45,057 nucleotides of DNA, from sequence record PP925821.1; one strand, given 5' to 3'. The notes under the pieces were generated by a model. The model made no database searches and was not told the origin of the DNA. It worked only from the letters and a program-made list of their open reading frames with translations. The position numbers and the translations under genes are program-made. Origin of the DNA: Escherichia phage Eeyore. Below are positions 42,528-43,618 of the stretch, piece after piece; the first letter of the stretch is position 1, and every line of letters begins with the position of its first letter.

Positions 42528-43165
42528 GCGGATTCGAAGTTTACAACAGCGACGGAAAACTGCTGGTGGATTCACAAAACAGATCGACCATGTTTTATGA
42601 TCAACGCGCGCTGGGTGCCGTAACCAATAAAGGCTATTACCGTGTTGATAGCCCGTTTGGTGATGGCAGTACACTTGGCACCACTCCTCAGGCATTCTGG
42701 AATGACGGGCGCTTAAGGTGGCTGCAGCTGGGTACGAACAAATACGGTTTTCCGGGTGCTGATATGCTGGAAGATAATGCGGGTAGCATGATCCGAACTG
42801 CGCGAAATATTGGCATCCAGAGCGGCTATCTCGATGTGTTTGATAGTGCCGGAAACCTTATCTGGAGTGCGGCCTCAGCGTCTAAGATGCCGAGAGTATT
42901 CGGGTTCTTTGATGTGCCAGCGAACTATGACCTGCAGAACAATACGTTCTCAGTAAGTCTCAGTTTCAACCCCTGGATTCTGGTAAATAACTGCCCAGGT
43001 AATCTCAGCGATGATGGCACGGTTGTAGGGTATTCAGGTGTAGTGCTCAAATGGACTGGCTCGCAGCTGCAGGGCAGATATATATCTAAAAATCAGCGCA
43101 ACTGGAGCCAGACATTTCAGGGTAGGGGATTACGAATCCCCATTGCTCAGTTTGTCGGTATTTGA
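42524..43165 (+). CDS. Hypothetical tail-region protein (paralogous N-terminus, internal repeat)
   Basis: 213 aa; FEVYNSDGKLLVD and internal LDVFDSAGNLIWS repeat the motif of the upstream protein. Confidence 0.5.
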   Translation: MSGFEVYNSDGKLLVDSQNRSTMFYDQRALGAVTNKGYYRVDSPFGDGSTLGTTPQAFWNDGRLRWLQLGTNKYGFPGADMLEDNAGSMIRTARNIGIQSGYLDVFDSAGNLIWSAASASKMPRVFGFFDVPANYDLQNNTFSVSLSFNPWILVNNCPGNLSDDGTVVGYSGVVLKWTGSQLQGRYISKNQRNWSQTFQGRGLRIPIAQFVGI

Positions 43166-43492
43166 CTCAGGGGGAACGCGAGGATACTGCGTGGCAATCA
43201 TGTTTTGTCTCACGCCTTTCGCTGCGTTGAAGCGATAAACAACATCCAGTTTATCGGTTTTTTTATAGCAAATATTACTGAGCCGCTTATTTACATGGCG
43301 GCTAAATATTCCATTGCTGCTGTCAGAAATAACCGTCATTTCTCGCGTGGCGCAGTCAATATTAACGTGAATATCACCGCCCAATGATAAACGGGCAGCG
43401 TCAACCGGATAATCCATTCTGAATGCGTTGTCTGTGTGTTTACTGGAACAGCCAGCCAGCAGCAAAAATATTGCAGCAAATAATCGTTTCAT
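43130..43492 (-). CDS. Antisense lipoprotein between tail accessory genes and the tail-fibre gene
   Basis: 120 aa; MKRLFAAIFLLLAGCSS with lipobox LAGC; SD AGGA; AT-rich context; 3' end overlaps the convergent gene by 36 nt. Confidence 0.6.
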   Translation of the reverse strand: MKRLFAAIFLLLAGCSSKHTDNAFRMDYPVDAARLSLGGDIHVNIDCATREMTVISDSSNGIFSRHVNKRLSNICYKKTDKLDVVYRFNAAKGVRQNMIATQYPRVPPESNTDKLSNGDS

Positions 43493-43561
43493 TTCTACAT
43501 TCCTGTAAATGCGGGAATATCCATTTTATTAGAGTTTAAAAAATAGTCAGATTGATATGAG

Positions 43562-43596
43562 CGATCAATTTTACATGATTGATCGTTTCAAACGAT
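43562..43596. promoter_or_regulatory. GATC-containing palindromes in the divergent promoter region
   Basis: Three GATC sites in 35 bp; perfect inverted repeat GATCGTTT-C-AAACGATC (43580..43596) overlapping GATCAAT-N8-ATTGATC (43562..43583). Confidence 0.5.
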
Positions 43597-43618
43597 CGTT
43601 ATTATCGTGAGGTAGTTC

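Follow-up and report, generated by a model that had tools for sequence, protein, structure and literature searches.

Escherichia phage Eeyore carries a small lipoprotein gene on the strand opposite to its neighbours, between the two short genes behind gpJ (42225-42527 and 42524-43165) and the side tail-fibre gene stf (43619-44905), and three GATC sites stand close together in front of it. Does this arrangement form an epigenetic switch, and what would the lipoprotein do once it is switched on? An earlier note on this DNA had taken the GATC-rich palindromes as the hallmark of Dam-dependent phase variation. We analysed the locus within the whole 45,057-nt stretch of the phage (PP925821.1), here called the window, and all positions count from its first letter. 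PqqU, formerly called YncD, is a TonB-dependent importer of pyrroloquinoline quinone (PQQ). We read the locus as a lysogenic-conversion cassette in which a lipoprotein mimicking TonB would act at PqqU under a heritable switch of the OxyR/Dam type, a reading to which we give slightly better than even chances. Operator alignment makes it likely that the region 43551-43596 is a Dam-sensitive OxyR operator of the lipoprotein promoter; by analogy with known operators, heritable phase variation of the gene is plausible.

The control region of the lipoprotein gene

The open reading frame (ORF) of the lipoprotein (43130-43492, minus strand, 120 aa) carries the lipobox LAGC, as had been noted, and the gene is real, being a conserved antisense moron. 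The AT-rich island described around it was found as well: the GC content is 41% in 43130-43618 and 32% in the intergenic part (43493-43618), compared with 52.7% window-wide, and it goes down to 36-44% along 43200-43700. The three GATCs within 35 bp and both inverted repeats are present exactly as the earlier note had them. The control region contains the following elements.

43499-43518, no strand: hairpin with stem TTCCTG/CGGGAA in the 5' untranslated and Shine-Dalgarno region of the lipoprotein gene, terminator-like on the plus strand
43523-43550, minus strand: predicted sigma-70 promoter from a consensus scan, with -35 CTGACT (43550-43545), a 16-bp spacer and -10 TAAAAT (43528-43523)
43551-43565, no strand: OxyR-type half-site X, promoter-proximal, ATTG-ATATGAG-CGAT; it holds the GATC at 43563-66 and abuts the predicted -35
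43566-43581, no strand: central element CAAT-N8-ATTG, which together with the flanking CGAT/ATCG forms the first palindrome, CGATCAAT-N8-ATTGATCG
43582-43596, no strand: OxyR-type half-site Z, promoter-distal, ATCG-TTTCAAA-CGAT; it holds the 13-bp GATC pair (43581-84 and 43594-97)

When the region is written in tetrads, it can be compared directly with four reference operators:

Window operator: ATTG-N7-CGAT.CAAT-N8-ATTG.ATCG-N7-CGAT.CGTT
agn43 operator: ATAG-N7-CGAT.CAAT-N9-ATCG.ATCG-N7-CGAT.CGAT
Mu mom region I: ATAG-N7-CGAT.CGAA-N8-ATCG.ATCG-N7-AGAT.CGAT
P22 gtr B-C: ATAG-N7-CTAT.CAAA-N9-ATTG.ATCG-N7-CGAT.CAAA
P22 gtr B-A: ATAG-N7-CTAT.ATAA-N9-ATTG.ATCG-N7-CGAT.CAAT

At agn43, mom and gtr, OxyR binding and its block by GATC methylation have been established experimentally (PMC2909390). 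Half-site X of the window aligns with the X half-sites of all three, and half-site Z (GATCG-TTTCAAA-CGATC, 43581-43597) has both T6 and A10; each of the two matches the OxyR consensus ATAGxTxxxAxCTAT at 8 of 10 positions. The 13-bp GATC pair arises because such a half-site is written here with ATCG/CGAT for ATAG/CTAT. Half-site X is also the single 1-mismatch copy of GATCG-N7-CGATC and stands beside the exact copy, which occurs once in the window. The exact inverted repeats, GATCAAT-N8-ATTGATC (43563-84) and GATCGTTT-C-AAACGATC (43581-97), had been taken for the functional unit; the alignment turns them into by-products of doubled OxyR-type tetrads. The half-sites lie N16 apart in the window and in mom, and N17 in agn43 and gtr, while the GATC spacing is 18/13 in the window and in mom and 19/13 in agn43. 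Extra-turn half-site spacings (N16-17) have been attributed to reduced OxyR.

The best match of the agn43 operator window-wide was found at 43551, with 35/50 identities (z about 7) and 31 at the next unrelated position. When GATCs were planted at this spacing in random AT-rich 50-mers, just 0.06% of the 50-mers scored as high. The second-best agn43-like position, 10539, was rejected as a chance match; it lies inside a CI-like repressor gene and has one GATC.

The same arrangement of genes occurs, at 82-87% nucleotide identity, in HK639, LMessi, CharmingMan, LLS, Flotzy and a prophage of E. coli UMNK88, and also in genomes of Enterobacter, Kosakonia, Pseudescherichia and Franconibacter. The intergenic DNA of seven close relatives has an identity of 95%, compared with 82-87% in the flanking 1 kb. 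For the conservation test, 19 loci were retrieved through the protein and not through the DNA motif. The three GATCs with invariant 13/18-bp spacing were present in 17 of them, and CGATCAAT-N8-ATTGATCG is invariant in the module-bearing loci: the arms of the central element are fixed and its N8 is freely variable in all homologues as well as in the other genomic contexts described below. The N7 within GATCG-N7-CGATC varies (TTTGAAA, TTAAAAG, TTTAAAG, ACAAAAG, ACAAAAA), and no compensatory changes were found in its interior among the protein-retrieved loci. Because the inner 7 nt vary without compensation, the perfect 17-bp palindrome, exact as it is in the window, is an accident confined to the window's own lineage.

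The clustering of GATCs had itself been offered as evidence, and here the statistics are empty. The cluster is the only one with three GATCs within 35 bp in the window; yet if the window's 212 GATCs were placed at random, about 2.3 clusters of this kind would be expected in 45 kb, and one or more would occur with P = 0.86. Clustering alone therefore proves nothing. Such counts would also suit an AT-rich spacer that happens to hold three GATCs and has no regulatory meaning. A chance origin is effectively refuted by conservation, since the three sites and their spacing are invariant across 17 protein-retrieved loci with variable spacers; the module also recurs in unrelated contexts, and the agn43 match has P of about 6e-4 even with planted GATCs. 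We give chance next to no credence.

The predicted transcription start site (TSS) of the lipoprotein gene lies at about 43516, and the predicted -35 (43550-45) abuts half-site X. Both promoter hexamers are kept in 17/17 module-bearing homologues, and the geometry of the predicted promoter lies within 2 bp of that of the annotated promoter and TSS of phi80 cor. The stem of the hairpin at 43499-43518 is conserved and its loop varies (TAAAT/TTTAT/TATCT). This hairpin pairs better on the plus strand, as its G-U pairs become A-C on the mRNA strand; candidate roles are translational control or a plus-strand terminator.

Other known types of control site were also considered. A switch of the pap type, with Lrp and Dam, has two GATC boxes (CGATCTTTT context) about 102 bp apart and a PapI-like co-regulator (PMC2909390). 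In the window the GATCs are 13 and 18 bp apart, and the 126-bp intergenic region holds no second box. An operator of the CI/Cro type was rejected, as neither the palindrome nor the half-sites are repeated elsewhere in the phage. Boxes for Fur, CRP, OmpR, TyrR and DnaA gave partial or wrongly oriented matches, none of which explains the four tetrads; this is a weak rejection, made by eye.

The module in other genomic contexts

A scan of viral contigs with the pattern CGATCAAT-N8-ATTGATCG-N7-CGATC returned at least 120 loci in at least three unrelated gene contexts. A context like that of the window was seen in 61 loci, 36 of them with a complete lipobox ORF (31 distinct proteins). In P2-like Enterobacter prophages, 52 loci lie between the tail-fibre assembly gene and the sheath gene and adjoin an antisense ORF for a 40-aa membrane protein. 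The remaining loci adjoin ORFs for other small envelope proteins. There are 46 distinct module sequences among 78 loci, with part of each sequence set by the pattern of the search. Two features outside the pattern, the outer AT(T/G)G tetrad and T6, are conserved across contexts, the ATTG and T6 of half-site X being near-invariant. Whatever the context, the half-site with one GATC faces a small leftward gene, the ATG of which is 53-70 bp away, and the right-hand neighbour changes. Because of this fixed facing, the module serves the lipoprotein gene and not stf, which is simply its right-hand neighbour in the window.

Several of these loci have features of their own. A P2-like example on an IMG/VR contig (locus L123, 7445-7667) has a near-perfect 46-bp palindrome and is 96% identical in Enterobacter phage ENT4; the antisense 40-aa ORF of this context (MTILLWIIGCLAAWW...) is unannotated and ends at a bidirectional terminator. 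In other contexts (loci L037, L111, L121, L127 and L130) the module stands beside ORFs for 54-103-aa membrane or zinc-ribbon-like proteins, often after tail-fibre assembly genes. Locus L037 has two module copies in different contexts, at 5587-5622 (plus strand) and 8694-8729 (minus strand), and a gene for a D12-class adenine methylase is present in L121, about 300 bp to the right of the module.

The module was also found upstream of cor, the gene of an FhuA-blocking lipoprotein. In phi80, mEp237 and PHB10 it reads ATTG.ATCG-N7-CGAT.CAAT-N8-ATTG.ATCT-N7-CAAT and is oriented towards cor, at the distance from its gene that it also has in the window (in phi80, FN582354, locus L002 2595-2644, ATTGATCG-N7-CGATCAAT-N8-ATTGATCT-N7-CAAT). 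The GATCs are at -83/-70/-52 from the annotated TSS of phi80 cor and at -81/-68/-50 from the predicted TSS in the window. About 60-110 bp upstream of cor in HK75, HK544, mEpX2 and mEp234, two of the three GATCs are mutated (GATT, TATC). Such single-GATC sites of HK022-type cor phages may be natural, methylation-insensitive "locked" variants.

The tetrad-for-tetrad match, the invariant GATCs and the recurrence of the module facing envelope genes together argue for a Dam-sensitive OxyR operator. Could the tetrads bind another protein, i.e., another LysR-type transcriptional regulator (LTTR) with a T-N11-A box, SeqA or a phage factor, with Dam sensitivity incidental or absent? ATCG-N7-CGAT fits the generic LTTR box, the 8/10 score of each half-site leaves room for such a binder, and the HK022-type cor phages, which keep the tetrads and lose two GATCs, indicate that tetrads can persist without methylation sites. 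On the other hand, the four tetrads, their doubling (ATTG.ATCG, CGAT.CAAT) and both spacings match four OxyR-bound operators. The palindrome occurs nowhere else in the phage, which speaks against a CI/Cro operator, and the presence of the module in both lambdoid and P2-like phages argues for a host factor common to Enterobacteriaceae. We regard a different binder as quite unlikely.

The inverted repeats might also act as RNA, in that hairpins of the late plus-strand transcript would terminate, process or stabilise the stf leader or insulate the antisense gene. The plus strand does fold better than shuffled sequences (z -2.76), with a 12-bp stem at 43559-88 and the hairpin at 43499-518, terminator-like calls fall on this strand, and an invariant stem with a variable loop would be expected of an RNA hairpin too. 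Against this role, compensatory changes are absent, the stem being invariant and its extended arms not conserved across contexts, and there is no consistent U-tract. The orientation to the leftward gene is fixed, whereas the right-hand gene changes (stf at 22 bp, the P2-like sheath gene at about 130 bp, others), and in phi80 the module lies upstream of the cor promoter and not in a late-gene leader. An Rfam search of 42900-43900 gave no match. An RNA function is thus very unlikely in our judgement.

If we extend the OxyR-type reading beyond the window, AT(T/G)G-N7-CGATCAAT-N8-ATTGATCG-N7-CGATC could be a portable OxyR/Dam switch that serves as a common control of receptor-plugging genes in enterobacterial prophages. 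Its targets would include Cor (FhuA), the SIP-1-like TonB mimic of HK639-type phages (PqqU) and the small membrane proteins of P2-like phages. This generalisation is tentative, and we consider it doubtful for now. If it were true, superinfection exclusion and TonB-dependent nutrient uptake would be phase-variable in lysogens, as a bet-hedging trade-off between phage resistance and transporter function.

The lipoprotein and the receptor-specificity cassette

The lipoprotein and the genes on both sides of it are listed below, together with a methylase gene encoded elsewhere in the window.

42124-42228, plus strand: last ~35 codons of the gpJ-like central tail fibre tip, co-varying with the downstream cassette
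42225-42527, plus strand: RBP-2 homologue, 100 aa, small subunit of a predicted PqqU/YncD receptor-binding module
42524-43165, plus strand: RBP-1 homologue, 213 aa, predicted PqqU/YncD-binding protein
43130-43492, minus strand: lipoprotein gene (ORF and lipobox), 120 aa, SIP-1-like putative superinfection-exclusion factor
43223-43414, minus strand: TonB C-terminal-domain-like core in the AlphaFold2 model, residues 27-90, with a YP motif and conserved Cys47 and Cys75
43448-43492, minus strand: lipoprotein signal peptide with a K/R n-region and the lipobox L-A-G-C (Cys15), as read from the sequence
43619-44905, plus strand: stf, side tail-fibre gene with ribosome-binding site GAGG (43609-13), PF25670, PHROG 1591
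13123-14481 (ORF limits), plus strand: Dam-family N6-adenine methyltransferase, PF05869 (E 2e-43), domain residues 28-208

The N-terminus of the lipoprotein reads MKRLFAAIFLLLAGC-SSKH, and among 37 homologues the conservation of G14 and C15 is 90% or higher. The export signal was judged by inspection. According to the +2 rule of the Lol system, the residue at +2 sets membrane sorting, and the Ser at this position predicts sorting to the outer membrane. The temperate-phage versions have a lipobox with Ser, Thr or Ala at +2, which again predicts an outer-membrane anchor. Behind the lipobox, the window protein has a tether of about 12 residues, and it ends in a disordered tail.

In BLASTP the lipoprotein matched SIP-1 of the lytic phage IsaakIselin (QXV80559) with 30% identity over 84 aa (E 1e-14), and tblastn gave matches in Drexlerviridae of the YncD type. 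The YP motif, Cys47 and Cys75 are common to the lipoprotein and the SIP-1 homologues. PHROG 25729, which has no annotated function, matches the full length (E 4e-67); a Pfam search found nothing significant. The AlphaFold2 model, built from 37 homologues, has a predicted local distance difference test score (pLDDT) of 83-96 over residues 31-90. When it was used in a Foldseek search, eight of the nine best PDB matches were C-terminal domains of TonB, FusB or HasB; the matches include FusB 7zc8 (E 4e-3, prob 1.0) and TonB in 2gsk, 6i97 and 2grx. The sole match of the family profile among all PDB sequences was TonB (FusB; E 0.008).

In the literature, SIP-1 is described as TonB-C-terminus-like and likely a superinfection-exclusion factor, and RBP-1 (QXV80560), RBP-2 (QXV80561) and SIP-1 of IsaakIselin have been modelled on PqqU, with the RBPs outside and SIP-1 at the periplasmic face (PMC12124388). 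We arrived at the predicted TonB link of the lipoprotein independently of this description. Homology and fold model together identify it as a lipid-anchored, temperate-phage homologue of SIP-1 with a predicted TonB C-terminal-domain fold. By analogy, its most likely role is superinfection exclusion through the periplasmic face of PqqU. The lytic-phage homologues have AxA signals of the signal-peptidase-I type (..PLNAMA in IsaakIselin, locus L145 3229-3561; ..SFNAMA in IME347, locus L146 2726-3064) and no lipobox, which suggests that the SIP-1 family has soluble periplasmic as well as lipid-anchored forms.

The neighbouring genes point to the same receptor. The product of 42524-43165 is 48% identical to IsaakIselin RBP-1 (E 2e-69), and that of 42225-42527 is 33% identical to RBP-2 (E 5e-16). 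For the RBP-1 homologue, tblastn gave matches in the YncD-dependent phages IsaakIselin (Bas10) and IME347; the terminal receptor of both is YncD (PMC8594841). Homologues of this 213-aa protein bear the precomputed Pfam label PF28254/DUF8377. The lipoprotein and RBP-1 homologues stand side by side near gpJ in the Drexlerviridae IsaakIselin (Bas10), IME347 and NBD2, and synteny with the RBP-1/RBP-2 homologues at the gpJ end is kept in every homologous locus examined. The lipoprotein accompanies the RBP-1 homologue down to 41% RBP-1 identity. In the Drexlerviridae KW1E_UTAR (MZ506873), KLB22 (PP554336) and KLB16 (PP197198), the SIP-1 homologue lies about 16-29 kb from the RBP-1 homologue and is not adjacent to it. 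We predict from these homologies that the window phage, HK639, LMessi, CharmingMan, LLS and Flotzy use PqqU/YncD as receptor.

In phi80, HK75 and many mEp phages, the slot of the lipoprotein gene holds cor, which lies on the other strand, and homology to the window restarts exactly at the stf ATG. The J C-terminus is ...TFEINGVAGGGRMLISSTLIRIYDSNNVLRVRMGLW in all lipoprotein-bearing phages and ...TFENYGSTAGEGAMKLTNQTISVKDGSNVLRVQVGRLTGVF in the cor phages phi80 and HK75. The product of 42225-42527 shows marginal similarity to phi80 gp22, and the 213-aa RBP-1 homologue is unrelated to gp23 of phi80 and HK75. Since the lipoprotein gene, both small genes and the final ~35 residues of J change as one set, these parts form a receptor-specificity cassette. 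BLASTP detected no similarity between the lipoprotein and Cor of phi80/HK022 (E 0.31 over 11 residues), and the fold search gave TonB domains and not Llp; homology to Cor or Llp was therefore rejected. By analogy of place and proposed role, the lipoprotein would be a positional and functional analogue of Cor, without being its homologue, and a functional analogue of Llp.

Lipoprotein homologues form 53 clusters, mostly from Enterobacter. The protein is 97-98% identical to its counterparts in E. kobei and Enterobacter sp. RIT637, so that the window is itself probably an Enterobacter prophage; among E. coli genomes the locus was found just twice. In HK639 (HM208537, 23535-23897) the lipoprotein gene is unannotated in both GenBank and RefSeq. 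Instead, the records carry a 53-aa plus-strand ORF, HK639_26, over the 5' part of the gene and its promoter, which is probably spurious. In Enterobacter mori CP061801 (locus L009, 3259-4239), an insertion sequence with a DDE_Tnp_1 transposase interrupts the tail-fibre gene beside the lipoprotein homologue, which is 57% identical and has a different, GATC-free promoter with an extended -10 (TGTTACAAT).

The genes of the RBP-1 homologue and the lipoprotein are convergent and overlap by 36 bp (43130-43165), and this overlap is kept in all close relatives; the last 12 codons of the RBP-1 homologue lie opposite the stretch that encodes the lipoprotein's disordered C-terminal tail. A terminator-like hairpin with a 7-T run (43233-43266, plus strand; CGATAAAC..GTTTATCG GTTTTTTT) lies on the late-gene strand about 70 nt past the RBP-1 stop codon, inside the antisense lipoprotein coding sequence. 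Because of this hairpin, late transcripts would need antitermination to reach stf.

The proposed switch and its known counterparts

From the operator and the protein we infer the following chain of events. The lipoprotein gene would be transcribed leftward from its own promoter, with one OxyR tetramer site immediately upstream, made of half-sites 43551-65 and 43582-96 at 16 bp from each other and enclosing all three GATCs. Reduced OxyR would bind the unmethylated operator, cover about -35 to -80, and most likely repress, because the position corresponds to the repressing BC site of gtr and the repressing site of mom. Bound OxyR would abut or overlap the -35 and keep Dam away from the GATCs. 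Once host Dam has methylated these sites, OxyR would be excluded and the promoter would fire; phage Dam would force the ON state during lytic growth. Each state would propagate itself after replication and give heritable ON and OFF lysogen lineages, as at agn43 and gtr. In ON cells, the lipoprotein would dock on the periplasmic face of PqqU, probably at its TonB box. As PqqU is the predicted receptor of the phage's own tail tip (J tip with the RBP-2 and RBP-1 homologues), docking would close lysogens to PqqU-dependent phages, in the same way as Cor of phi80 acts at FhuA. ON lineages would thus exclude phages with PqqU blocked, and OFF lineages would keep PqqU functional and be susceptible. Of the regulation proposed earlier, the Dam-sensitive site is likely in view of the operator alignment, and phase variation is plausible. 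A Dam-family methylase of the phage, which the earlier note had invoked, is indeed encoded at 13123-14481. The window also has a second DNA methyltransferase gene at 20290-21366 (PF01555, N6_N4_Mtase, DPPY motif).

The serious alternative is that the same OxyR/Dam operator is a gate of the mom kind and not a heritable switch. The gene would be off while the site is unmethylated, e.g., on freshly injected or rapidly replicating DNA, and would be released by host or phage Dam, so that expression is uniform in lysogens or falls mainly in the lytic phase. The 18/13 and N16 spacings are identical to those of mom, and the GATCs have a similar position relative to the TSS (about -87/-69/-56 in Mu by our own reading, compared with -81/-68/-50 in the window). 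In addition, the phage has its own Dam, and the lytic Drexlerviridae homologues are expressed without such a site. What favours the heritable switch over the gate is that three GATCs in a single OxyR site are the design of the phase-varying agn43, which is also the closest sequence match (35/50), and that the gene, as an antisense moron driven by its own promoter, has the usual form of genes expressed in a prophage. Weighing these points, we consider the gate unlikely.

A number of observations weigh against the heritable switch or against parts of the proposed cassette. Mu mom, whose operator is of the same type, is not known to phase-vary (PMC2909390), and the 18/13 GATC pattern of the window is the mirror image of mom and agn43 with respect to the regulated gene. 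The match to Mu mom (28/50, compared with 26/50 at the best unrelated position) is too weak as a stand-alone statistic, and only the architecture of mom was used. The OxyR match of the window site was drawn from the consensus and the four reference operators, and the TSS of the lipoprotein gene is a prediction. The pattern used to scan viral contigs fixes 21 positions, so that conservation within that set is partly circular. The distant homologues in E. mori (L009) and Franconibacter (L010 and L022) have unrelated promoters without GATC, and the HK022-type cor phages keep the tetrads with only one GATC; the switch is therefore dispensable. On the protein side, hhalign against E. coli TonB gave E 8.6e-4 with a probability of only 24%, and the interaction of SIP-1 with PqqU is itself an AlphaFold prediction (PMC12124388).

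If the operator works as predicted, the locus would add to a small group. In enterobacteria, only a few epigenetic switches that depend on Dam are known (pap-like fimbriae, agn43, gtr, opvAB, std), and in two of them, gtr and opvAB, phage resistance is balanced against other traits. Lipoproteins that block phage receptors of the outer membrane from the periplasmic side would be a new class of target, and the module would provide a sequence signature for such switches in hundreds of prophages, including the one beside phi80 cor. Oxidative-stress sensing by OxyR and methylation would be linked to phage immunity and to PQQ and siderophore uptake. Lysogens would be predicted to be heterogeneous in their susceptibility to PqqU-dependent phages, which bears on phage therapy and on plating data. 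A literature search gave no paper in which cor, SIP-1 or any exclusion lipoprotein is placed under OxyR/Dam control, and the coupling of a SIP-1-like lipoprotein and of cor to an operator of the agn43/gtr/mom type appears to be undescribed. The SIP-1/TonB-mimic kind was proposed recently; its lipid-anchored temperate-phage member is new, and it is a second, independently anchored phage-borne mimic of the TonB C-terminal domain.

Among known exclusion proteins, Llp of T5 is a small outer-membrane lipoprotein that acts periplasmically on a TonB-dependent transporter serving as phage receptor (PMC9586334). The window lipoprotein would be of the same kind in size, anchor and target, whereas Llp is an early gene product of a lytic phage, and the fold search with the window protein gave TonB domains. 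We know of no OxyR/Dam site at llp. Cor of phi80, N15 and HK022 is likewise a lipoprotein and a moron with its own promoter in the slot between a gp23-like gene and stf. It differs in its size of 77 aa, in lying on the late-gene strand, in lacking sequence similarity, and in belonging to a cassette of the FhuA type, whose gp23 is unrelated and whose J tip differs. SIP-1 of IsaakIselin/Bas10 has the two conserved cysteines, the YP motif, the TonB-C-terminal-domain fold and the RBP-1/RBP-2 partners beside gpJ in common with the window protein. However, SIP-1 carries a signal for signal peptidase I (..NAMA), and its gene is transcribed together with those of the RBPs in a lytic phage, whereas the window lipoprotein has a lipobox, a tether and a disordered tail and is encoded by an inverted gene with its own promoter and an OxyR/Dam-type module.

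Among known operators, agn43 (flu) of E. coli is alike in having one OxyR site with three GATCs. There the site closely follows the TSS, and its single-GATC half-site is adjacent to the -10, whereas in the window it lies upstream of the predicted TSS, abuts the predicted -35 and has the gene on its other side; the central spacer of the window site is also shorter by 1 bp. At agn43 the target is an autotransporter gene, and in the window it would be the gene of a phage exclusion lipoprotein. Mu mom region I, an OxyR/MomR site with three GATCs, has identical spacings (18/13, N8, N16), an upstream position at about -50 to -85 and a phage gene as target; it differs in being mirrored relative to the promoter, in requiring the activator C and Com, and in its low identity outside the tetrads. 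P22 gtrABC has three half-sites with four GATCs, alternative activating (AB) and repressing (BC) positions and a spacing of N17, compared with only two half-sites, three GATCs and N16 in the window. Methylation-sensitive OxyR binding has been shown for the gtr OxyR(A)/(C) half-sites (PMC2909390). The gtr half-sites are literally ATTGATCG-N7-CGATCAAT, with GATC pairs 13 bp apart, and the promoter-proximal one overlaps the -35. Like the operator proposed here, the gtr region controls a prophage function by which the receptor of the phage itself is altered or masked.

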